This document shows positions 2,264-41,172 of a stretch of DNA of 42,333 nucleotides, piece after piece. The translations under genes were made by a program, and so were the position numbers. This DNA comes from a virus. Within the stretch, counting starts at the first letter, position 1. The number at the start of each line of letters is the position of its first letter. Below the pieces are notes generated by a model. It ran no database searches, was not told the origin of the DNA, and saw only the letters and a program-made list of their open reading frames with translations. Location: the IMG/VR virus record IMGVR_UViG_3300045988_165172. One strand, given 5' to 3'.

Positions 2264-2400
2264 AAAAACTTATGAATTGATGGTACTAATAATTATAATA
2301 GAAATAATGTAGTAGAAAGTTTAAATGTATCATTTACTACCACATTAAACACTGCATATATTTAATATACACAATATAAAAATATTGCGTACTTAGTTTG

Positions 2401-2429
2401 TTGCATATTTTGACATCTTTCTATACTAT
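2401..2429 (+). promoter_or_regulatory. Candidate sigma-A promoter of the moron (TTGCAT-17 nt-TACTAT)
   Basis: The hexamers and the 17-nt spacer were read from the sequence. The site is directly upstream of the RBS GAGGGAGG. Confidence 0.4.
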
Positions 2430-2455
2430 TTATGGTATAGAGGGAGGTATTTTTA

Positions 2456-2725: not shown

Positions 2726-2757
2726 AAAAGAGTCTTAAAAAATGAGACTCTTTTTTA
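2726..2757 (+). terminator. Rho-independent terminator
   Basis: AAAAGAGTCT (2726..2735) pairs with AGACTCTTTT (2745..2754) and is followed by a T run. Confidence 0.75.
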
Positions 2758-2778
2758 ATTGGAGAAAGGAGTTGATAT

Positions 2779-3432
2779 ATGAAAATTGCAATATTAGATT
2801 CAGGCATTTTCCCTCATATTGACTTAAGAGAAAAAATAATCTATGGTAAAAACTTTACATCAGAAGGTAATAGCCAAAATGTAGAAGACAATAACGGGCA
2901 TGGTACCCATGTAGCAGGAATTATACATAGTATTATCCCAGAAGCACAGCTATTAATAGTAAAAGTATTAGACAGATATGGCAAAGGCAATATAGAAGAC
3001 GTGACAGAAGGTATATATTATGCTATAGAAAAGAATGTAGATATAATTAATATTTCTATTTCTTTCGAAGATGAAGATAAAGAAATGGAGGAAGCTATAC
3101 AACTTGCAAAGGATAAAAATATACCAGTAATATGTGCAGCAGGAAATAACAATGTAATAGAATATCCAGCACAGTATGGGATTAGTGCAGGGTCCTTAGA
3201 TCCTACTAGCGGGAATATATCTGAATTTTGCTCTAAGGATTGTGTTATATATGCACCAGGAGAAAATGTAACCAGTACATACCTTAATGATTCTTACGAG
3301 ACAATGACAGGTACATCTATGGCAACAGCAAAGGTAACAGGATATATAGCAAAAGAAATAAAAAATAAAAGAGATATAGTTAAATTTGTAGAAGAAAATA
3401 AATATATATATAAAGGAGTAGTAGGAGTATGA
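2779..3432 (+). CDS. Compact subtilisin-like (S8 family) serine protease, no signal peptide
   Basis: Catalytic D-H-S order with the classic contexts: AILDSGI, GHGTHVAG, oxyanion AAGNNN, GTSMATA. Only 217 aa. The TGA stop overlaps the ATG of the next gene (ATGA). Confidence 0.8.
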   Translation: MKIAILDSGIFPHIDLREKIIYGKNFTSEGNSQNVEDNNGHGTHVAGIIHSIIPEAQLLIVKVLDRYGKGNIEDVTEGIYYAIEKNVDIINISISFEDEDKEMEEAIQLAKDKNIPVICAAGNNNVIEYPAQYGISAGSLDPTSGNISEFCSKDCVIYAPGENVTSTYLNDSYETMTGTSMATAKVTGYIAKEIKNKRDIVKFVEENKYIYKGVVGV

Positions 3433-3659
3433 ATGAAGAACTACTAGAAGACAAAGTAAAAACGCATGAACAAAGGATAAACGCACATTCTGACAGATTA
3501 GACAAATTAGAAAATAGACAAGCAGAAATGACAGTAAAATTAGATAATTTATGTAGCACCATAGATAAATTATCAATAAATTTAAACAAACTAACTTATG
3601 CAATTATAACAGCATTGGTTAGTTTTTTCTTTTATGTAATACAAAATCATCTTTTTTAA
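3429..3659 (+). CDS. xhlA: XhlA-like lysis accessory protein (coiled coil plus C-terminal TM helix)
   Basis: 76 aa with an N-terminal coiled coil (EQRINAHSDRLDKLENRQAEM) and a C-terminal hydrophobic helix. It sits immediately upstream of the holin. Confidence 0.7.
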   Translation: MNEELLEDKVKTHEQRINAHSDRLDKLENRQAEMTVKLDNLCSTIDKLSINLNKLTYAIITALVSFFFYVIQNHLF

Positions 3660-3673
3660 TAGGAGGTAATGAG

Positions 3674-3871
3674 ATGAAATTTAATTTAAAACAACAAGTA
3701 AAAAATAAATACTTTTGGGTATCAGTAGTTAGTTTAATTGTTTTAACTGCTCAGCAATTTAACTTGGACTTTATACCAGCTAATTTTCAAGATTATGTAA
3801 ACTCAGTTTTAACAATTTTAGTTGCTATGGGCATACTTACAAATAATAGCACTCCAGGAATCGGAGAATAA
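3674..3871 (+). CDS. Holin (phi LC3 / Phage_holin_1-like)
   Basis: 65 aa. Motif KNKYFWVSVVSLIVL, two hydrophobic segments and a polar C-terminal tail. RBS AGGAGG. Sits upstream of the endolysin. Confidence 0.8.
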   Translation: MKFNLKQQVKNKYFWVSVVSLIVLTAQQFNLDFIPANFQDYVNSVLTILVAMGILTNNSTPGIGE

Positions 3872-3976
3872 GAATAGGTATAAACATAAGGTGAATATTT
3901 TGAAAAGTGCTTAGAAAGCTAACTGCAAGGTCGTTTTTTTAAGCACTTTATTATTTTAGAAAGGATTTGATATTTT

Positions 3977-4786
3977 ATGAATAAGCCAGTGATAGTAGAA
4001 AAATGGCAAAAAAGAAATAAATATGGCAGACCTGGAACAAAATTAAATTATACGAAAGTAGCTATACATTATACAGGAAAGGCGGATGTAAAAGGCATAA
4101 ACACAGTATCTTATTTCAACAATGTTGTGGCGAATGGATACAAAGTTAATGGAAAATATATCTATGCATCCGCTCACTTCGTTATTGATCTAGATGGAAC
4201 TATATACCAACTAATTCCGTTAAATGAAATCTGTTATGCGACTAATAGTGCTAATAGCTACGCTGTAGGAGTAGAAGTAGCTACAACAGGAAGCGACAAC
4301 CATTATACAGACGCTACATATAAAAGTATGGTCGAATTATGTGCGTGGTTATGTGCTAATAAAGGACTTAATCCAAAGCAAGATATAATACGTCATACAG
4401 ATGTTGTAGGGAGAGCATACAAACTATGCCCTATATATATGGTAAATAACCCAGATAAATATGAACAATTCAGATTAGACTGTTATAACGTAAAAGCAGG
4501 TAAAGTCAGCTTAGATAAAGTTGTAAATTGTACTAATGGAAAAGGTAAGGTTACAGTAATTCCTGATGCGACACAAAATAAAACACAACTTGTAAGAATA
4601 TTACAAGACGTAAATATACGCAGTGCAGCTGATTTTACTGATGCAAGTGTAATCGGCGTAGTTAAAAAAGGAGGAGTATATACTGTTGTTGAAAAAATAG
4701 AAAGAACAGGAACAGATATGTATAAACTTAAATCAGGAGTTTATATAACAGCATCTCCAAAATATGTAGAAGTATTTGAAAAATAG
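3977..4786 (+). CDS. Endolysin: N-acetylmuramoyl-L-alanine amidase (Amidase_2/PGRP) with C-terminal SH3b wall-binding domain
   Basis: Amidase_2 motifs are present (AIHYTG, SAHFVIDLDG, YAVGVE, IIRHTDV, KLCP). The C-terminus has an SH3b-like segment (VNIRSAADFTDASVIGVVKKGGVYTV). Confidence 0.85.
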   Translation: MNKPVIVEKWQKRNKYGRPGTKLNYTKVAIHYTGKADVKGINTVSYFNNVVANGYKVNGKYIYASAHFVIDLDGTIYQLIPLNEICYATNSANSYAVGVEVATTGSDNHYTDATYKSMVELCAWLCANKGLNPKQDIIRHTDVVGRAYKLCPIYMVNNPDKYEQFRLDCYNVKAGKVSLDKVVNCTNGKGKVTVIPDATQNKTQLVRILQDVNIRSAADFTDASVIGVVKKGGVYTVVEKIERTGTDMYKLKSGVYITASPKYVEVFEK

Positions 4787-4834: not shown

Positions 4835-4924
4835 ATGAAAATAGATATATTATTAAGACTAGGATACTTTGTATTAGGAGTATTATTTGCAACAGCTATA
4901 ATACCATTGTTGCTAATAAAATAA
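4835..4924 (+). CDS. Small hydrophobic peptide (29 aa), hypothetical
   Basis: RBS AGGAGG 7 nt upstream of the ATG. Sequence MKIDILLRLGYFVLGVLFATAIIPLLLIK contains one TM helix. The terminator follows immediately. Confidence 0.4.
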   Translation: MKIDILLRLGYFVLGVLFATAIIPLLLIK

Positions 4925-4954
4925 GGCTAGGGAAGTTATTTTCCTTAGCCTTTT
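4923..4954 (+). terminator. Rho-independent terminator ending the lysis operon
   Basis: AAGGCTAGGGA pairs with TCCTTAGCCTT (one G-U pair) around an 8-nt loop, with Ts at the 3' side. Confidence 0.7.
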
Positions 4955-5049: not shown

Positions 5050-6558
5050 TTATATTTTAAATTTAACCTCTAAAGTAAACTGTGCAAATCTCTTTTTTTC
5101 TTTATAATATAAAATTTCCTTTATAACAGTTTTTAAAGCCTTGTTTTTCAGCTCTATGTTATCTGTATTCTCATAGTCTCCTATAGCGCACTCTATATTT
5201 TTTGCTAATTCTTTATAATCAATATCCTTACTAACTTCTGCTTCCAGTAGCTTTTTAGTACCTTTTATAGCAGTTTCTATTTCCTCTTTCTTAGCTGCTA
5301 AAGTTTGTTGCCTTTCTAAAAAAGTATCTACATCATAGATGCCTCTTTCTAGCAAGTCATGTAGCTTATTTTTCTGCTTATCTAATTCTGTTTTTTCTCT
5401 ATCTAAACTAATTAAAGTATTTTGTAACATCTCTAATTGCTTATTTTCTTTATCCTCTATCTCCGTATTGTTTAACTCGTCTTTAATTTCTTTTAATTTA
5501 ACTTTTAGTGTGTTTAATATTTCTTCTTCTACTAGATCTAACCTAGAAGAACCTACCTCATAGCAATTTTTACAACGCAAATAAAGTACTGGTCCTTCTT
5601 TAACAGTATTATAAGATGCTACCATTGTATGTTTACAATAAGAACATTTCACTATACCTGCTAGTGGATTAACTAATTTTCTATCGTTTTTCTTAGATGG
5701 TATTTGATTGCCTTTTCTTATTTCTTGTGCTTTATTCCAGTCCTCTTCACTTATAATAGGTTTATGTTTGCCTTTGTATATTAGCACATCGCTTTCTTTA
5801 TTTTTCTTTGTCTTAGTCCCTTTTCTACGATACTCAAACCAAGTTACATACCCACAATACGTTTGATTTCTTATAATTCTTCTAACTGCACATTCTGTAA
5901 AATCTTTACCAGCAGTTGTTTTGTAGCCTAAAGTGTTCAACCTTTTCATTATTCTAAAAGAACCTTCACCATTTAGATACATATCAAATATAAGTTTTAT
6001 TGCTGGCGCTGTTTCTTCATCTATAATCATATGCCTTTTCCCGTATTCATCATATCGAAACTTATAACCAAGTGGCGCTGTTGAGCCTATAAAATTACCT
6101 TCTTCTATACTTTTTACACGCCCTCTTTGCATTCTTTTTGTTATTACTTTTAATTCCCTACGTGCAAAAAACGTTTTAAATTCGGTCATTTCTTCGTCTA
6201 GGTCGTTATTTAGGTTATACGTTTTATCTGGAGTAATAATAAGTGTATTAGTTTTTTTAAAAGTGTTAATTATTCTCCCTTGGTCCTGCATATCTCCACG
6301 TCCTAAACGGTCTATATCCATGCATAACACAGCATCATACATATTTTTTTCTATTTCTTCTAATAACTTTATCATTTTTGGTCTCTTAGCAATGCTGTCA
6401 CCTGTTTTTATTTCTTCCTTTATTTCGATAACGTTAAGATCCTGGTTTTTAGCAACTTCTAATAGTGTGCTTCTATGTCTGGCTAGTGTGTCAACGTCTT
6501 CTTTTTTCTCCAGTTCTTCATCGGCACGACTTTTTCTTAAATATATACATGTTTTCAT
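5050..6558 (-). CDS. int: Large serine recombinase (phage integrase)
   Basis: N-terminal resolvase domain (CIYLRKSRADE, DRLGR), a recombinase domain, a Cys-rich zinc ribbon (CSYCKH...CKNC) and a C-terminal coiled coil. 502 aa. Confidence 0.9.
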   Translation of the reverse strand: MKTCIYLRKSRADEELEKKEDVDTLARHRSTLLEVAKNQDLNVIEIKEEIKTGDSIAKRPKMIKLLEEIEKNMYDAVLCMDIDRLGRGDMQDQGRIINTFKKTNTLIITPDKTYNLNNDLDEEMTEFKTFFARRELKVITKRMQRGRVKSIEEGNFIGSTAPLGYKFRYDEYGKRHMIIDEETAPAIKLIFDMYLNGEGSFRIMKRLNTLGYKTTAGKDFTECAVRRIIRNQTYCGYVTWFEYRRKGTKTKKNKESDVLIYKGKHKPIISEEDWNKAQEIRKGNQIPSKKNDRKLVNPLAGIVKCSYCKHTMVASYNTVKEGPVLYLRCKNCYEVGSSRLDLVEEEILNTLKVKLKEIKDELNNTEIEDKENKQLEMLQNTLISLDREKTELDKQKNKLHDLLERGIYDVDTFLERQQTLAAKKEEIETAIKGTKKLLEAEVSKDIDYKELAKNIECAIGDYENTDNIELKNKALKTVIKEILYYKEKKRFAQFTLEVKFKI

Positions 6559-6667: not shown

Positions 6668-7321
6668 TTATTTAATAACTTTAGTATTACTATCTAGTTT
6701 CAAATATTGACCATCTTTTAATGTTATTAACTTACTTCCAGAAAAATAATCTGCTGTTTGTAAATCAGGACTATTATTATATCCACCAGCTAAATTATTG
6801 TATAGACAAAACCAACCCTCAGAGCCATCATTTATAGCTTCTAATTTATGTTCTCCAGGAGTTATATCTTTGCCTACTATATACATACCATTTGTAAGTT
6901 CATCAAGATTAGAAAAATCTAATGCTTCATCCTTTATCTCATCAACTTTATATAAATCACATTTGTTTAATTGTAAATATTGGCCATCTTTTACTTCTAT
7001 ATAAGAGAAATTTTCAAAAGCATTTGAATCAACCTTAGAATCTAAGTCTCCAGTAGTATCAGTAGTTATATCAAAACTTCCCATAAATTCACCATCATGT
7101 TTAACTAAAACATAAATTCCTGGATCTAAATCTTTTCCAACTTTAAACGTACCATCACTTAGTTTGAAACTAATTTTATCTTCTTGTTGATTTTCTGTTG
7201 AACCTTCTGTATCTTCCGGTTGTGAAGAAGATTCAACAGAAGTGGTATTAGTACTATTACTACAAGCGGTAATATTTAAACATAACAAAAAACATAACAC
7301 AATATTTAATATTTTCTTCAT
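6668..7321 (-). CDS. Prophage lipoprotein with internally duplicated domain (candidate superinfection exclusion or moron product)
   Basis: Signal peptide with a lipobox (LCLNITAC). Two similar halves (DGTFKVGKDLDPGIYVL...VKDGQYLQL and NGMYIVGKDITPGEHKL...LKDGQYLKL). An alternative GTG start lies at 7327. Confidence 0.75.
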   Translation of the reverse strand: MKKILNIVLCFLLCLNITACSNSTNTTSVESSSQPEDTEGSTENQQEDKISFKLSDGTFKVGKDLDPGIYVLVKHDGEFMGSFDITTDTTGDLDSKVDSNAFENFSYIEVKDGQYLQLNKCDLYKVDEIKDEALDFSNLDELTNGMYIVGKDITPGEHKLEAINDGSEGWFCLYNNLAGGYNNSPDLQTADYFSGSKLITLKDGQYLKLDSNTKVIK

Positions 7322-7546
7322 TATCACAAAACTCCCTCTTTTTTATTTTTCTTAAATTGTAGCATATTATACAGAGTTTTATACTAAAAAATGCCAAAAT
7401 ACCTCTTTTTATTTATTAGTTGGTAGTATAATATATATTATAAGTATTTCGGAACATTTTAAATGCTATATTATAAAAAATCGTATATAATATAGATAAA
7501 GAATATATAGAACAAACGTTCTATAAAAATGAATTAGGGGGGCAAC

Positions 7547-7663
7547 ATGCAAAATATATTAGAAAGAGATGAAATAATAAAATTATTAGGTCAAAACCAT
7601 TTAGAGTTATACATACAACTTGCCGAAAAAGAAATAAAAAAAGCAAATAATGAAGAAAAGTAA
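7547..7663 (+). CDS. Hypothetical 38-aa protein
   Basis: G-rich RBS (AGGGGGG) upstream of the ATG. The ORF ends at the bidirectional terminator. Confidence 0.4.
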   Translation: MQNILERDEIIKLLGQNHLELYIQLAEKEIKKANNEEK

Positions 7664-7676
7664 ATCGATATAAAAA

Positions 7677-7701
7677 AGGACTAGGAGTTTTTCCTAGTCC
7701 T
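7677..7701. terminator. Bidirectional terminator between the small ORF and the repressor gene
   Basis: AGGACTAGGA pairs with TCCTAGTCCT. There are A runs upstream and T runs downstream. It overlaps the repressor stop codon. Confidence 0.7.
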
Positions 7702-8011
7702 TTTTAAAACTTAATACCATTTCTAAAATAGATTCAAATTGTTCATCTGTTAACTGATCAGTTAATCTTATTGCTTTCTTTTGCCTTTCTGTTATATCTT
7801 CTATAGGTTTTTTATCTTCTGATAAACCAAGTAAGTAGTCGGTAGTTACATCAAATATTTTTGATAATTGTACGAGCGTTTGTGCATCTGGAACACTCTT
7901 TCCTCTTTCATAATAGCCATATGCACTTTTTGTTAAACCTATTTTATCAGCAATATCTTTTTGAGTATATTCGTTTTCTTCCCTTAGTTCTCTTAATCTC
8001 TTAGCTAACAT
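7694..8011 (-). CDS. CI-like repressor, XRE-family HTH
   Basis: HTH_3 signature (YTQKDIADKIGLTKSAYGYYERGKSVPDAQTLVQLSKIFDV). ATG at 8011 has RBS AGAAGGG; the ORF-track GTG at 8035 is an alternative. The gene is divergent from the cro-like gene. Confidence 0.85.
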   Translation of the reverse strand: MLAKRLRELREENEYTQKDIADKIGLTKSAYGYYERGKSVPDAQTLVQLSKIFDVTTDYLLGLSEDKKPIEDITERQKKAIRLTDQLTDEQFESILEMVLSFKKD

Positions 8012-8080
8012 TTTATTTTCCCTTCTTTTTATCACATTGATTTATATCTAGTAATATGTTACAAGTAGTTACTAATTTAA

Positions 8081-8101
8081 TATAAGTAAATTATACTTAT
8101 A
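8081..8101. promoter_or_regulatory. Candidate operator (21-bp palindrome TATAAGTA-AATTA-TACTTATA)
   Basis: Palindrome read from the sequence. It overlaps a possible - strand -10 element (ATTATA at 8090..8095). Confidence 0.35.
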
Positions 8102-8169
8102 TATTCTCCATTTATGCAAATATTCCTTATCTTTTTTATAATAAAAATAAAAAATTTTTGCCAAAATTA

Positions 8170-8198
8170 TTGACAAGCAAGTTATACTTGCCTATAAT
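8170..8198 (+). promoter_or_regulatory. Early lytic promoter (TTGACA-17 nt-TATAAT)
   Basis: Perfect consensus hexamers with a 17-nt spacer, about 75 nt upstream of the cro-like gene. Confidence 0.75.
8177..8191. promoter_or_regulatory. Candidate operator GCAAGT-TAT-ACTTGC inside the promoter spacer
   Basis: Perfect 15-bp palindrome lying between the -35 and -10 elements. Confidence 0.5.
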
Positions 8199-8275
8199 AA
8201 AAGTATAAAAGCAAATAAAACTTAACTAAAATTAAAAAAACAAAAATAATTCAACCTAGAGGAGGTGATAAACAA

Positions 8276-8488
8276 ATGAATAAATTAAGAGAACTTAGGG
8301 TAGAGAAAAAGTATAGACAGATAGATTTAGCTAAAAAAATAGGGGTAACAAGACAAGCATTTTCTTGTTATGAATTAGGGATAGCTAAACCATCATTAGA
8401 TAAAGCCAAGATGATTGCAGATATATTTGACTGTTCTATAGAAGAAATTTTTTTTAATAATGAATACAAATTAAATTCACCTAAATAA
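8276..8488 (+). CDS. Cro-like XRE-family HTH regulator
   Basis: 70 aa. HTH_3 motif (YRQIDLAKKIGVTRQAFSCYELGIAKPSLDKAKMIADIF). RBS GGAGGTG. Confidence 0.85.
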   Translation: MNKLRELRVEKKYRQIDLAKKIGVTRQAFSCYELGIAKPSLDKAKMIADIFDCSIEEIFFNNEYKLNSPK

Positions 8489-8531
8489 TGTGCAAACAAG
8501 TTTGATGTACTTGCAGAGAGGAGATTGAAAC

Positions 8532-9377
8532 ATGAACTATATAGATGAAATGAACAAAACTGTAGAAAGAATAGTACAAACAGTATCATCTAGAGAAGTA
8601 GCTGAAATGATGGAGGTTAGACATAGTGACTTATTAGAAAAGATAGAAAAAATAAATAAAGATTTTGAAAACGGAAAAATCCGTTCTCAAAAATATTGGA
8701 TAGAAGGAACTTATAAAGTTCCAGGTAACAACAAAACATACAGAGAGTTTCAAATTACAAAATTAGGTTGTGAATTTCTAGCACATAAAAGTACTGGAAC
8801 AAAAGGTAACTTATTTACCGCTAGATATATGGATAGATTCGAAGAAATGGAAAAAACATTAAAAGAACAAAATACACCTTCTTATATGATAGAAAATCCA
8901 GTAGAAAGAGCAAAACGTTGGATACTTGAATATCAAGAAAAAGAAAAATTAGTAATAGAAAATCAACAACAAACAAAAGTTATAGAAAAACAGTCCGAAG
9001 TTATAGGAGAAATGGCTCCAAAGGCAGAGTATTTTGATGCTTTAGTAGATAACAACTTACTTACAAATATAAGAGATACTGCTAAAGAATTAGGAATAAA
9101 AGAAAGAACTTTTACAGAGTGGTTAATTCAAAAGAATTTATGCTACAGAGATAAAAAAAGAAAAATTAAACCTTATGCAAATAAGATGAAGTACTTTGAA
9201 TTAAAAGAATTTACAACTGCTTGGGGACATAGCGACACACAAACACTTATAACTCCTAGAGGTAAAGAAACCTTTAGATTACTTCTTATAAAAGATGGAT
9301 TAATAAAAGATCATAACAAGCAATTAGAGTTAGGATTACCAGTTAACGAAGTTACAAAATCAGATTTTTATAATTAG
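8532..9377 (+). CDS. Antirepressor: Rha-like N-terminal domain plus ANT-like C-terminal domain
   Basis: Rha-like region (SSREVAEMMEVRHSDLLEKI). ANT-like region (YFDALVDNNLLTNIRDTAKELGIKERTFTEWL). Confidence 0.75.
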   Translation: MNYIDEMNKTVERIVQTVSSREVAEMMEVRHSDLLEKIEKINKDFENGKIRSQKYWIEGTYKVPGNNKTYREFQITKLGCEFLAHKSTGTKGNLFTARYMDRFEEMEKTLKEQNTPSYMIENPVERAKRWILEYQEKEKLVIENQQQTKVIEKQSEVIGEMAPKAEYFDALVDNNLLTNIRDTAKELGIKERTFTEWLIQKNLCYRDKKRKIKPYANKMKYFELKEFTTAWGHSDTQTLITPRGKETFRLLLIKDGLIKDHNKQLELGLPVNEVTKSDFYN

Positions 9378-9388
9378 GAGGATTAAAT

Positions 9389-9802
9389 ATGGAAGATAAT
9401 AAAAAAATTGGATTTACTTATTTGGGAGACATAAGAATAGAGAGAGCAAATGTTAGAGTGATAGAAATAGGGGCTGGAAGTCTTAAATTTGCACTAGACG
9501 AAAGATATCCTTACTACATAAAGGTTTATATAGGAGATAGCTCTGACGAAGGATTCGAATACATAGACGACATATCAGGGATAGATCCAAAAATAAATGA
9601 TGATGAATTTATGACAATAGTTCTTAATTATTGTGTGCAACATGTAGAGTTTATAACAAATAAAGCAATGGAGGAAAGGGTTCAAAATTACTATAAAAAG
9701 TTAGAAAAAGAGAATCAAAAGGTAAAACAAATTTTATCTCAATATACAGATGAACAGTTATTAAACGAAGTTAACGAAAGAGGGCTTTTAGGGGGTAACT
9801 AA
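9389..9802 (+). CDS. Hypothetical protein
   Basis: ORF with RBS AGGAGG. No motif recognised. Confidence 0.6.
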   Translation: MEDNKKIGFTYLGDIRIERANVRVIEIGAGSLKFALDERYPYYIKVYIGDSSDEGFEYIDDISGIDPKINDDEFMTIVLNYCVQHVEFITNKAMEERVQNYYKKLEKENQKVKQILSQYTDEQLLNEVNERGLLGGN

Positions 9803-9804
9803 AT

Positions 9805-10008
9805 ATGGCGATATACACAGGAACAGAACATTTTTACAGACGCAATCCAGAAGAAGTAGCCGACGTATTAAGACATAAAGGATTTAAGGAAGAATGGAGT
9901 ATTATAACTCCTTTTCAACAAGAAATAAAAATGTTTCATAAACTACAAAACAAATTCGCATTATTAAGAAAGCAAGGCAACCATACAGTAGTTGATTATA
10001 GTAGATAG
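9805..10008 (+). CDS. Hypothetical protein
   Basis: Tightly packed ORF in the early operon. Confidence 0.55.
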   Translation: MAIYTGTEHFYRRNPEEVADVLRHKGFKEEWSIITPFQQEIKMFHKLQNKFALLRKQGNHTVVDYSR

Positions 10009-10141
10009 GAGGTAACAATGGCAAAATACATAGCAGTAAGTTTTATATTTAGCATCGGATTTTTTTAGGGGCATGGTGGAGAAGTATCCACGAATAGGAC
10101 AAATTTTAGACAGCATATTTTTTATAAAAGGGGGTGCTTAG

Positions 10142-10318
10142 ATGGAGTATAAAGTAACAGGACAATATGAAAACGACAGAGCAAAAGTAATTATGATGTC
10201 TCCAGTAGGGCTTACAGAAGAGGAAAGAACAATAATATTAAAAGATATAAAGAAAGCGTTTTACGAAATAGCAAAATACAATTATCTACAAGCACGAGAA
10301 GAAAGTGCTGGCGCTTAA
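10142..10318 (+). CDS. Hypothetical protein (58 aa), not in the ORF track
   Basis: RBS AAGGGGG upstream of the ATG. The frame was read by hand and ends ...ESAGA. Confidence 0.5.
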   Translation: MEYKVTGQYENDRAKVIMMSPVGLTEEERTIILKDIKKAFYEIAKYNYLQAREESAGA

Positions 10319-10333
10319 AAAGGAGGTGATTAT

Positions 10334-10438
10334 ATGAAATGTACACCAGAGGTCCTAAACTACCTAGCAAACAAATATCCAAGTATGACAGTAAAACAAC
10401 TTATAGAGTTAATGAAATCAAAATGCAACTGGAGATAA
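10334..10438 (+). CDS. Hypothetical protein (34 aa), not in the ORF track
   Basis: RBS AAGGAGGTG 5 nt upstream of the ATG. Confidence 0.45.
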   Translation: MKCTPEVLNYLANKYPSMTVKQLIELMKSKCNWR

Positions 10439-10450
10439 GGGGGATAACAA

Positions 10451-10678
10451 ATGAAGAGTAAAGAACAAATTTACAATGATGTAAAAGAGCTTGTTGAAGC
10501 TCAAGATAAAGAAAATTACTTAGCATACTACAAAGTATTTTTAGACAACTCAGGAAGACATGACATACCAACAGAAGAAAAAGAAAACATAATCAATCAA
10601 GCATACTCAAAATATGAACAACAATCAGCAGAATTATATGACATCTTAGATCATGCATACCTAGATTTTATCTCATAA
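10451..10678 (+). CDS. Hypothetical protein
   Basis: ORF with RBS AAGGGGG. Confidence 0.6.
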   Translation: MKSKEQIYNDVKELVEAQDKENYLAYYKVFLDNSGRHDIPTEEKENIINQAYSKYEQQSAELYDILDHAYLDFIS

Positions 10679-38433: not shown

Positions 38434-41172
38434 ATGAGCTATACGACACAGTATGAAGAATATACAGAAAACTATAATAATATAATAAAAGTTTTAAGCG
38501 ACATAATAGAATCAGGTGAAGTTACATCTGGTTCTCAGGCGCTTCTTGAAGAAGCTTATATAGATTATAATAACAGTTATGCCGACACTTTGCGTACTTT
38601 TCAAACCATCAAAGAAAGTACGCAAACCAAGAAGTTGCAGGACATTGAGATAAAAAAAATTGACGCAACTAAGAAAAATATAGTAGACATATTAACAAAC
38701 AACGGAGTCAATAATTCAATCTACCTCGATGACAATGATAATATTATGATTAATGGTGAATATGTACCAGACTTGAATCAAATTAAGATAACAGTAGATC
38801 AACAGAACAAAAAAATTGAATCTATGATAAGTGGCGGCGAAATAGAAATAGATGGAGAAAAAAAATCTGTACAAGTCGCATTTACCGATTTAAAACAAAC
38901 TGTAGATACCGTTTCTTCAACTGTAACTAATTTCCAACAAAAGGTCGAAAAAGACTATTATACCAAGGAACAAACCACTTCACAAATAACGCAAAAAGCG
39001 TCAGATATTACAACTACAGTAGCTAATACTTATGCAACTCAAGATACAGTTAATAACATGGGTACTATGATACAACAAAAGACAGATGAAATAACAAGTA
39101 CTGTAGCATCGCTTAAAAAAAACTTAGCTGATAATTATTCTACATCTACAGAAGTAACGTCACAGATAACGCAAAAAACAGATGAAATTACTGGTTCTAT
39201 ATCAAAAACGTACGCAACTAAGGATTCGGTTACAAGTCTCGATACTACGTTACAGACTAAGATTGGAGAGGTTTCAAGCACTGTAACAAGCGTTAAAAAA
39301 GATCTAGCTGACAACTATACAAATAATACAGATCTTGCTACACAATTATTACAAACAGAAAATAGCATTACTGCTACAGTAAAATCAACATACGCAACAA
39401 AAGATTCAGTTAATACTTTTGCATCACAAATACAACAAACAGAAAACAAAATTAATATGGTAGTAGCTAGTAATAGTACAGAAACAAATGTAATACTTAC
39501 AGATAAAGCACTAACAGCTATATCAAACAATATTAATTTATCAGCAGATAATATAAAACTAGAAGGATATACGACTATTAATGGCGGCTTCAAAGTTGAT
39601 ACTTCTGGAAACATAGAAGCAACTAATGCTAATATAACAGGGGAGATAAATGCTACATCTGGTAAAATTTCTTCGGACTTAGAAGTCGAAGGATTGAACG
39701 TATCAGGAACATTAACAGCCGATTCACTTAATGTTAGACAACTTAATTGCGGTGATTTGAATGGTGTAGTGTCTGATGTAGCTCTTGTAGTAGATTCAAC
39801 AATCGATACATCAAATGTCTTTGAGAATAACGGCAAATTTAGCTCTTTACAAAGAGCAATAGAGAGTATTCCTAAAAATTTAAATGGATATACGGTATCT
39901 ATCGAAGTTAATTCAATATTATATGAAAATATAACTATAAAGGGATTTAATGGGGGCACTTTATATATTAAATTTAATAAGAATAATTGTGGTTATATAT
40001 TTGGACATAATTGTGGAGCAGAATTGCTATTGCAGGGAACTGGAACAACTTCACAGATATTAGTAAGTAACTATAAAACAACAGGAAATGTCAACATGCG
40101 TACGGGCGGAGATGTTTCTTACAATATAGTTCAAACAGTTCCAACTGGAGCAACATTATTGCTTACAAACTTTAACTCAAATGGTTGGGGATACACTACA
40201 TATAACGGAAAAAGTGGATGGATGAGTACAAATACAAGTTATATGGTAAAAGAAGAAGTATATGAAACATCTGGTTCGTCAACTGCTATACAACCAAGTG
40301 AATTACTAACACAAGATGGTAAAAACTATGCTGCAGTATTTCGTAATTGTCCTTATGTAGCTTTATTTGATTTAGAAGTGTATGGCAAAACTGGCAATGC
40401 GTCAAATTATGCTATCGGCTCCATAAGAGGATCCTATGTAGATATAGAAAATAGTAAAATTTGTGGAAGCGAAAACGGAATGTTAGCTAGTAGAGGTGGT
40501 AGAATATTTGAATCAAATGTTAACGGTAAAGTAAATAAAATCGCACAAAAGGCTGAATTGAGTGGAATGATTTATATAAATGATGGTACAACTATAAATG
40601 GGACAACATCTAAAGATAGTTCTTCTCAAGTTATATATTCTGAATCTGGAGCAGTCCAAGATACAACAAGTAATGTTGGAACAAATACCAATACTACAAC
40701 TGCTACAACTACAGTAACTATAACTAGTACAGGTGCAGATACATATAGAAGTACAATGTATAATAATTACAAACAAGACAACACAGCGCGTCAAGGCAAC
40801 TATGGTTGGGGTGATTGTAACGGTTTGTGGCTATTTGGTTCTAAGTTCACACAGCTTAAAGGTAAAACTATTACTAAATTAACAGTTACAGTAAATCGTA
40901 TACAAGGTGGTATATATGGTAATGTTACTGCTACATTAAAAATGCATGGATACTCAACTAAACCTAGTGGTATGCCAACATATACATCTGGTTGGAGCAC
41001 ATCGATAACAACACCTATAAATACAACTAAAACTATAGAAATAACAGATGCAACAGTTCTTAATGCCATAAGCAATGGTACTTGTAAAGGATTTGGAGTT
41101 CAAGGTGCTTATGATTCTAGTCATTACGCCGTATTTGATGGTAACTGTACTTTGACTGCAACTATACAATAA
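38434..41172 (+). CDS. Tail fibre / receptor-binding protein with 60-aa repeats and an SH3b domain
   Basis: Three 180-nt repeats (TSQITQK..TYATKDSV). SH3b-like NMRTGGDVSYNIVQTVPTGATLLL...GWGYTTYNGKSGWM. The C-terminus is Thr-rich with a beta-rich domain. Confidence 0.7.
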   Translation: MSYTTQYEEYTENYNNIIKVLSDIIESGEVTSGSQALLEEAYIDYNNSYADTLRTFQTIKESTQTKKLQDIEIKKIDATKKNIVDILTNNGVNNSIYLDDNDNIMINGEYVPDLNQIKITVDQQNKKIESMISGGEIEIDGEKKSVQVAFTDLKQTVDTVSSTVTNFQQKVEKDYYTKEQTTSQITQKASDITTTVANTYATQDTVNNMGTMIQQKTDEITSTVASLKKNLADNYSTSTEVTSQITQKTDEITGSISKTYATKDSVTSLDTTLQTKIGEVSSTVTSVKKDLADNYTNNTDLATQLLQTENSITATVKSTYATKDSVNTFASQIQQTENKINMVVASNSTETNVILTDKALTAISNNINLSADNIKLEGYTTINGGFKVDTSGNIEATNANITGEINATSGKISSDLEVEGLNVSGTLTADSLNVRQLNCGDLNGVVSDVALVVDSTIDTSNVFENNGKFSSLQRAIESIPKNLNGYTVSIEVNSILYENITIKGFNGGTLYIKFNKNNCGYIFGHNCGAELLLQGTGTTSQILVSNYKTTGNVNMRTGGDVSYNIVQTVPTGATLLLTNFNSNGWGYTTYNGKSGWMSTNTSYMVKEEVYETSGSSTAIQPSELLTQDGKNYAAVFRNCPYVALFDLEVYGKTGNASNYAIGSIRGSYVDIENSKICGSENGMLASRGGRIFESNVNGKVNKIAQKAELSGMIYINDGTTINGTTSKDSSSQVIYSESGAVQDTTSNVGTNTNTTTATTTVTITSTGADTYRSTMYNNYKQDNTARQGNYGWGDCNGLWLFGSKFTQLKGKTITKLTVTVNRIQGGIYGNVTATLKMHGYSTKPSGMPTYTSGWSTSITTPINTTKTIEITDATVLNAISNGTCKGFGVQGAYDSSHYAVFDGNCTLTATIQ
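38977..39480 (+). repeat. About 2.8 tandem copies of a 180-nt (60-aa) coding repeat
   Basis: Repeat starts at 38977, 39157 and 39337 align at the protein level. Confidence 0.7.

Follow-up and report, generated by a model that had tools for sequence, protein, structure and literature searches.

A minimal S8 subtilase in a conserved but dispensable position of a phage lysis cassette

The lysis cassettes of Gram-positive phages are usually seen as combinations of holin and endolysin, sometimes accompanied by XhlA or XepA-like extras, and the question arises what a protease gene may be doing at the head of such a cassette. This is the situation in the virus record IMGVR_UViG_3300045988_165172 (IMG/VR), presumably a temperate gut phage of Clostridia type, a stretch of 42,333 nucleotides (nt) that was analysed at its full length and is hereafter called the window. 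It encodes a compact serine protease of peptidase family S8 (217 amino acids (aa); hereafter S8), the gene of which runs into the start of xhlA and is followed by genes for a holin and an amidase endolysin (Table 1). A first-pass annotation of the window had taken S8 for an intact, cytoplasmic subtilisin-like enzyme and for the first gene of the lysis operon, and had offered several roles for it, among them the processing of a lysis component. What is new here is the place of a minimal S8 subtilase, at a position of the lysis cassette that is conserved but dispensable; in the literature searched, no work was found that brings together a subtilisin-like protease, holin, endolysin, and prophage in the present sense.

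S8 matches the Pfam family PF00082 (Peptidase_S8) with an E-value of 1.1e-37 and 130.4 bits (gathering cut-off 21.8) as well as the PHROG 'protease' profile phrog_3677 (8.5e-47), and it displays the motifs DSG (Asp7), HGTH (His41), AAGN (Asn123), and GTSMA (Ser180), with the triad in the order Asp-His-Ser. All four residues are invariant in alignments of 26 and 56 sequences that extend down to 55 % identity, and the annotation of an intact D/H/N/S catalytic set is thus borne out. The same holds for the claimed absence of a signal peptide and a pro-domain, as the protein starts only six residues before Asp7, already on the first core β-strand of the structural model (E2-7), which leaves no space for either. 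This AlphaFold model is a confident one (predicted local distance difference test (pLDDT) 92.6, predicted template modelling score (pTM) 0.91), with disorder limited to the last four residues, and Foldseek aligned it to subtilisins and intracellular subtilisin proteases (ISPs) with query-normalised template modelling scores (TMq) of 0.85-0.88 and a root-mean-square deviation of about 2 Å; the predicted architecture is that of the α/β subtilisin fold. Ratios of nonsynonymous to synonymous substitution rates (dN/dS; median 0.24, range 0.07-0.42, 218 pairs) point to purifying selection on the family. As one element of the role tentatively proposed below, S8 would represent a catalytically competent minimal subtilase, its activity being deduced from sequence. 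The small size is real: when relatives were sought in a library of 1.84 billion proteins, only four full-length ones of the 150 that scored best do not exceed 230 aa, and the remainder are longer, save one fragment of 128 aa.

The closest relatives, both by sequence and among solved structures, are the ISPs of Bacillaceae (PDB 7y6m, 6f9m, 7xr8, 2x8j/2wv7), which share 44-49 % identity with S8 where named (phmmer E-value of 1e-34 to 7y6m) and are likewise signal-less S8A enzymes with the same catalytic motifs. They are, however, chromosomally encoded stationary-phase enzymes of about 320 aa with a C-terminal extension, not products of a phage lysis cassette, and carry an inhibitory N-terminal pro-peptide with a LIPY/F motif (PMC6220982). 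Aligned to them, S8 lacks about 42 N-terminal residues, and therefore any counterpart of the pro-peptide, together with a nine-residue loop after HGTHVAG, a seven-residue loop after AAGN, and about 60 C-terminal residues. Neither of the features by which ISPs are recognised, namely the LIPY/F pro-peptide and the ~320-aa architecture, is hence present in the phage protein. We take the nine-residue gap after HGTHVAGxxxx to be the loop 75-83 of calcium (Ca) site A in the numbering of subtilisin BPN'; loss of this site is reported to ease pro-domain-independent folding. Several top Foldseek hits (ranks 1, 4, 10, 29, and 36, among others) are in fact engineered calcium-independent variants of BPN' with a deletion of residues 75-83 (PDB 1suc, 1sue, 1gnv), from which S8 differs by additionally lacking the first ~25 and the last ~40 residues of mature subtilisin.

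The best match in NCBIfam is QhpE (NF049966; 2.7e-27), with whose 219-position model S8 aligns end to end, albeit with 95.6 bits and thus far below the equivalog cut-off of 165 bits. QhpE is likewise a minimal, pro-less cytoplasmic S8 protease of about 219 aa that shares an operon with the proteins it serves (PMC7876137), and the first-pass suggestion of a minimal core stands, though not as something unprecedented. As the leader peptidase of quinohemoprotein amine dehydrogenase biogenesis, QhpE acts once and suicidally on a single substrate that resembles peptides made on the ribosome and modified after translation (RiPPs; PMC7876137). Genes for qhpC, qhpD, or qhpG are absent among the neighbours of S8, where no RiPP-like substrate is evident either; a tail fibre gene, a moron, XhlA, holin, and amidase are found there instead.

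A search of 5.8 billion clustered proteins returned about 107 protein clusters of 194-222 aa with 54-98 % identity to S8, below which identity drops sharply to 320-aa ISPs at no more than 48 %; in the library of 1.84 billion representatives from clustering at 50 % identity, the family amounts to essentially one cluster. Its members stem from contigs of uncultured phages and metagenomes; for those few whose source is named, it is the human gut. A scan of metagenome contigs added four more, two of which name their source in the record, again the human gut. Isolated phages yielded no close relative, all 105 INPHARED hits (tblastn) lying below 60 % identity, and those listed (at most 39.4 %) belong to large Bacillus, Lactococcus, and Staphylococcus phages, where they lie in contexts other than lysis. 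At the DNA level no near match was found, and the GTDB representative genomes gave no family member, the best S8 relative there having 42 % identity. A further compact protein (P0135; 228 aa, 43 % identity, also without the Ca-loop) is encoded by an unrelated phage (L253, 4709-5687), where its gene overlaps a 101-aa open reading frame (ORF) and adjoins a Phage_fiber_2 gene and replication genes; since it lies outside a lysis cassette, compact pro-less S8 genes recur in phages also outside such cassettes.

How firmly S8 belongs to the lysis genes can be judged from phages that share the latter. A search with XhlA led to 30 sibling contigs, 29 of them informative, and S8 is present in 8 of these 29 XhlA-bearing siblings and missing from 21. 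The S8-less phages include L168, with 99 % identity in XhlA and 100 % in the holin, and L167 (holin 100 %, amidase 91 %, integrase 93 %); in comparisons of the window with L168, L167, and L147, all devoid of S8, DNA homology starts exactly at position 3428, one base before the xhlA ATG. Where S8 is missing, XhlA stands behind one of two leaders, each composed of hairpin, U-tract, and ribosome-binding site (RBS); these two leaders recur in front of S8 in the phages that carry it (L024-type and L114/L115-type, respectively). The leader hairpins before S8 (L024, L114) and before XhlA (L168) fold with -14 to -16 kcal/mol (z-scores of -3.4 to -4.1). Because identical leaders stand before S8 when it is present and before XhlA when it is absent, S8 is an optional first cistron inside the cassette, in keeping with its annotation as the first cassette gene. 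The terminator annotated upstream of S8 is represented by a 10-bp hairpin with a U-run (-14.2 kcal/mol, z -3.4) that is terminator-like, although a simple consensus terminator scanner did not call it.

The overlap annotated between S8 and xhlA, followed by holin and amidase endolysin, was confirmed by its coordinates (TGA 3430-3432 and ATG 3429-3431, forming ATGA). The native xhlA start (ATGAAT), found in S8-less phages too, provides this overlap, and the codons for the disordered S8 tail KGVVGV fall in the RBS region of xhlA. Between hairpin and ATG there is no space for a promoter of S8's own, which is why S8 can be taken to be co-transcribed with xhlA, holin, and endolysin; a scan for promoter-like sequences gave 38 instances (42 expected in shuffled sequence). 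S8 thus shows what is expected of a cassette component: it lies on the same strand, without intervening terminator or promoter, overlaps xhlA, and follows the conserved leader. It does not, however, accompany its partners universally, being missing from the 21 siblings and, in L255, disrupted by a 20-bp deletion that shifts the frame before Ser180 while XhlA and holin downstream are intact. These comparisons identify S8 as a dispensable accessory rather than a core part of lysis.

This bears directly on the proposal that S8 processes a lysis component in the manner of the clostridial germination subtilases CspB, CspBA, and CspC, S8 family members that act on a peptidoglycan hydrolase (pro-SleC) in Clostridia. 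The Csp matches are weak and partial (NF040809 7e-08, 30.6 bits with a cut-off of 1250; NF040808 18.9 bits with a cut-off of 675), and Csp proteins exceed 550 aa and retain their pro-domain, in contrast to the pro-less 217 aa of S8. The phage endolysins are moreover ordinary and variable, and are kept in S8-less siblings. As the same lysis proteins occur without S8, as S8 pairs with three unrelated partners and several endolysin types, and as one copy is frameshifted upstream of intact XhlA and holin, obligatory processing of this kind is not supported.

The three partners became apparent when gene neighbourhoods were compared across more than 20 distinct loci, where the arrangement of tail or receptor genes, S8, and a small membrane lysis protein is near-constant and usually involves overlapping genes. 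In eight viral contigs with at least 80 % S8 identity, S8 overlaps XhlA by 4 nt and the endolysin type changes, whereas at 70-74 % identity the overlap (8-17 nt) is with a Phage_holin_4_1 holin. At 61-66 %, the place is taken by a 93-101-aa protein with an N-terminal transmembrane (TM) segment (phrog_32121), which overlaps S8 by 4 nt or starts 7-13 nt after it and is usually followed by holin and amidase. In the most divergent loci (L030 and L138; 51-58 %), S8 is located between a Tal gene and a BppU-like fibre gene. Upstream, the neighbours are very variable: tail genes lie at a distance of 12-17 nt, CD1375-like genes at one of 1-4 nt, and morons occur as well, among them the 83-aa gene, acyltransferases, a fragment resembling NrdD, and an IS200/605 TnpB.

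A second feature that varies with S8 concerns host recognition. The window encodes a 912-aa protein after Tal (38434-41172), the C-terminal 170 aa of which recur in 11 of 13 S8-bearing records and in 3 of 19 S8-less ones; its C-terminal 300 aa were modelled as a β-helix followed by a jelly roll resembling carbohydrate-binding modules (CBM) or lectins (pLDDT 85.8), and probably form a receptor-binding head. The CBM/lectin-like domain is common to all S8-bearing phage groups at 32-97 % identity, and in several groups the gene that carries it lies just upstream of S8. We read this association as a signal of lineage or host and not as one between enzyme and substrate. With respect to the hosts, the best named relatives of the endolysin come from a Terrisporobacter phage (73 % identity), from Intestinibacter (67 %), and from C. 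perfringens (59 %), and XhlA has relatives in Clostridium and Clostridioides phages, so that Peptostreptococcaceae or Clostridium are likely hosts.

The integrity of the gene, its conservation in the family, its position, its coupling to xhlA, and its dispensability are established by the analysis. With a probability of roughly 0.4, we consider S8 to be an optional late protease of the cassette that acts on a host protein, possibly in the envelope, whereby timing, activity, site, and substrate are deduced. Since its partners vary and its presence tracks lineage and type of receptor-binding protein (RBP), the comparison of loci suggests a host protein as the most likely substrate, not a phage lysis protein, and an S-layer or wall protein is the best specific guess. 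S8 would be produced late, translationally coupled and from a read-through late transcript shared with the lysis genes, behind a leaky or antiterminated hairpin, and would be regulated like a signal-less endolysin; endolysins of canonical cassettes are signal-less and holin-dependent. The enzyme would build up in the cytoplasm and reach the envelope only upon permeabilisation of the membrane by the holin. Once outside, it may cleave proteins of the S-layer or associated with the wall in a Peptostreptococcaceae-like host, which would help disintegration and virion escape. As regards position, xepA of the Bacillus subtilis element PBSX (PMC6834076) may be seen as a precedent for an additional soluble gene upstream of xhlA; in PBSX, xepA-xhlA-xhlB-xlyA likewise follow tail genes in the order extra soluble gene, xhlA, holin, and amidase (PMC6834076; PMC5589764). 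XepA is accessory and its role in PBSX unresolved (PMC6834076; PMC5589764), but it is a pentameric C2-domain-like protein and not a protease (PMC6834076), and is unrelated in sequence to S8. A bolder version, in which a minimal, signal-less 'exit protease' is harmless in the cytoplasm, is freed via the holin lesion, and strips S-layer or wall proteins to aid virion release, must be regarded as unlikely.

A number of points weigh against the proposed late envelope role. The nearest relatives are intracellular (ISPs) and the closest architecture is that of the cytoplasmic QhpE, a kinship that would fit a cytoplasmic substrate equally well; S8 is also devoid of any domain for binding the wall or the S-layer. 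A subtilase left free and without inhibition in the cytoplasm looks like a hazard while virions are being assembled, and no gene for an inhibitor was seen. The correlation with the RBP domain may reflect nothing but shared ancestry, the events being few and non-independent, and as to the host, the endolysin relatives only suggest Peptostreptococcaceae or Clostridium. Lastly, the most divergent members, L030 and L138, have no lysis gene adjacent to S8.

Several of these points would be accommodated by a late protease that remains in the cytoplasm and acts on host proteins, be it for shut-down, for disabling abortive infection (Abi) or other defences at a late stage, or for membrane-proximal degradation before lysis, with the cassette position merely providing very late timing and thereby limiting toxicity. 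The ISP-like ancestry, the lack of signal peptide and anchor, and the example of QhpE, a pro-less S8 protease of ~219 aa at work on a specific substrate in the cytoplasm (PMC7876137), all speak for it, as do the optional, lineage-specific occurrence often seen with counter-defence genes and the compact or ISP-like S8 genes in non-lysis regions of other Firmicutes phages. Counter-defence and takeover genes are usually early, however, whereas S8 has no separate promoter and runs into the first lysis gene, and no partner or target gene is evident. PADLOC returned only its generic subtilase model (PDLC03014, 3.4e-11) and weak IetS matches, without partner genes, and an identity as a defence system was rejected on the grounds that this match is generic. 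Taken by itself this scenario is doubtful, yet the ISP/QhpE-like character of the protein makes a purely cytoplasmic role late in infection almost as likely as one in the envelope. In three cassette types, S8 is tightly coupled in translation to the first membrane protein, and the 3' part of S8 co-segregates with the type of partner; both could also point to a non-essential fine-tuning of lysis timing, in which S8 would trim the cytoplasmic portion of either XhlA, the N-terminal-TM partner, or a holin/antiholin and thereby sharpen or advance holin triggering. Yet XhlA and holin are kept at 99 % and 100 % in S8-less phages, a common cleavage logic is improbable for three unrelated partners of opposite topologies, and gene overlaps are common in phages, the ATGA here being intrinsic to the xhlA start; we thus regard such modulation as improbable.

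The late envelope role also has to be set against readings in which lysis plays no part. Maturation of the baseplate or RBP, or packaging of S8 into the virion to act on the host surface, would agree with loci of the L027 type, L030, and L138, where S8 follows at 12-17 nt a tail gene that has the conserved RBP domain at its end, with the BppU-like fibre gene after S8 in L030 and L138, with the co-occurrence of the RBP domain and S8, and with the fact that phrog_3677 contains the S8 domain within a 1125-position 'protease' profile. Nevertheless, the co-occurring domain is a receptor-binding head of β-helix and CBM/lectin-like jelly roll and not a cleavable chaperone, and three S8-less records carry it as well. 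The tail genes of the window and of its closest relatives are set apart from S8 by two or three genes plus a terminator; S8 moreover lies behind the lysis-cassette leader and travels with different tail types (CD1375-like contexts), which leaves little in favour of a virion function. Least probable of all is a lysogenic-conversion moron that benefits the host, or a decaying passenger devoid of a current role. The patchy presence, the frameshifted copy, and the adjoining moron hot-spot near the prophage end are compatible with it, and the first-pass idea of a moron position indeed holds for the slot just upstream, but S8 itself comes downstream of this slot and of the cassette leader, and no separate promoter serves it. 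Without promoter space and without a terminator before xhlA or holin, expression in a lysogen would bring along lethal lysis genes, whereas purifying selection and invariant catalytic residues oppose decay. Owing to the lack of a promoter, the overlap with a lethal downstream gene, and the merely generic PADLOC match, a self-standing moron or defence gene is unlikely.

Further observations concern the surroundings of S8 in related loci. In L008, L117, L119, and L123, a 370-371-aa ORF, assigned as TnpB-like (IS200/IS605-type) by sequence appearance only, ends 173 nt upstream of S8 (e. g., 4715-5827 in L123). The usual leader of hairpin and RBS is replaced there, with about 8 nt of the original left before the S8 ATG, and S8 translation may be impaired for this reason. 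In L027-L029 (66 % group; about 7046-10640), the block of S8, TM protein, holin, and amidase lies inside host-recognition genes, with BppU_N/collagen, DUF285, and CBM_5_12 genes after the endolysin. Between holin and endolysin, L029 carries a 194-aa ORF resembling HNH_3 homing endonucleases (PF13392; 6242-6826), and ORFs of the same size in the equivalent place, by which they are identified, occur in L118 (7349-7933) and L125 (7242-7826). A HicA toxin gene directly follows the fibre gene after S8 in L030 (7290-7904) and L138 (4792-4974); for a 121-aa ORF after HicA in L030, an identity as HicB is only a guess.

The features of the window are collected in Table 1. On the plus strand, the first 5000 nt read fibre gene, moron, hairpin with U-tract, RBS, S8, XhlA, holin, endolysin, and terminator, and the remainder is that of an SPP1-like siphovirus (31 % G+C) with genes for TerL, portal, gp7-like protein, scaffold, major head protein, tape measure, and Dit, in addition to a 1469-aa Tal and the 912-aa receptor-binding-type protein. 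A prohead or capsid maturation protease was considered and rejected, as the SPP1-like head module with scaffold and gp7-like protein is distant (19.8-25.6 kb) and S8-less siblings exist.

Table 1. Features in and around the lysis cassette of the window.
Feature	Position	Strand	Remarks
Fibre protein, 709 aa	134-2263	+	metallophosphoesterase domain
Lys-rich moron gene, 83 aa	2455..2706	+	ATG is residue 20 of a 102-aa ORF; hairpins on both sides
Cassette leader, terminator-like	2728..2756	+	10-bp hairpin 2728-2752 (AAAAGAGUCU / AGACUCUUUU) and U-tract
RBS GGAGAAAGGAG	2761..2771	+	3' end 7 nt before the S8 ATG
Compact S8 serine protease, 217 aa	2779..3432	+	ATG start
S8 catalytic codons	2797-2799; 2899-2901; 3145-3147; 3316-3318		Asp7; His41; Asn123 (oxyanion); Ser180
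XhlA-family membrane protein, 76 aa	3429..3659	+	PF10779, 2.4e-16; phrog_1193
Holin, 65 aa	3674..3871	+	Phage_holin_1 (PF04531)
Endolysin, 269 aa	3977..4786	+	Amidase_2 catalytic domain; DUF5776/SH3-like wall-binding domain
Strong terminator-like hairpin	4923..4952	+	13-bp stem; closes late/lysis transcription unit
Serine integrase	5050-6558	opposite	integrase domains

The 83-aa moron, for which a Pfam search gave no match, is kept at 99-100 % in L004 and L007 and replaced by other genes in other siblings; it lies outside the cassette and marks a variable slot upstream of it. An intergenic element of about 30-50 nt (window 2368-2444, with a hairpin at 2416-2445) recurs at 80-96 % identity in L168 (3862-3889), L167 (3045-3076, 3610-3660), and L153 (873-904, 1438-1488). 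It is found at the borders of different moron genes between tail fibre and lysis cassette, sometimes twice per phage, and may be a shared terminator or promoter or a recombination boundary for moron exchange. XhlA itself has a coiled coil at its N-terminus and a TM helix (TM at residue 55) at its C-terminus. The spacer between holin and endolysin (105 nt) contains a long imperfect hairpin (3901-3950; AAAGTGCTTA...TAAGCACTTT), the folding energy of which is not significant relative to shuffled sequences (z -1.3). Between endolysin and terminator, a 30-aa hydrophobic ORF (MKIDILLRLGYFVLGVLFATAIIPLLLIK; 4836-4925), kept at 83-93 % in L168-L170, may encode a small membrane peptide of the cassette.

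Lacking the N-terminal segment, the Ca-site-A loop, the C-terminal helices, and the pro-peptide, S8 is among the smallest natural subtilases and of interest for studies of subtilase folding and for engineering. Siblings with and without S8 but with near-identical lysis genes furthermore constitute a natural experiment. Should S8 prove neutral, it would be one more accessory gene at a known moron hot-spot. A conserved and selected protease heading the cassette would, by contrast, point to an uncharacterised proteolytic step, either in the disruption of the host cell or in late host manipulation. If the idea of an exit protease were true, a third kind of enzyme would be added to the holin-endolysin scheme, and proteolysis would be a recurrent, previously unrecognised step of lysis by Gram-positive phages.

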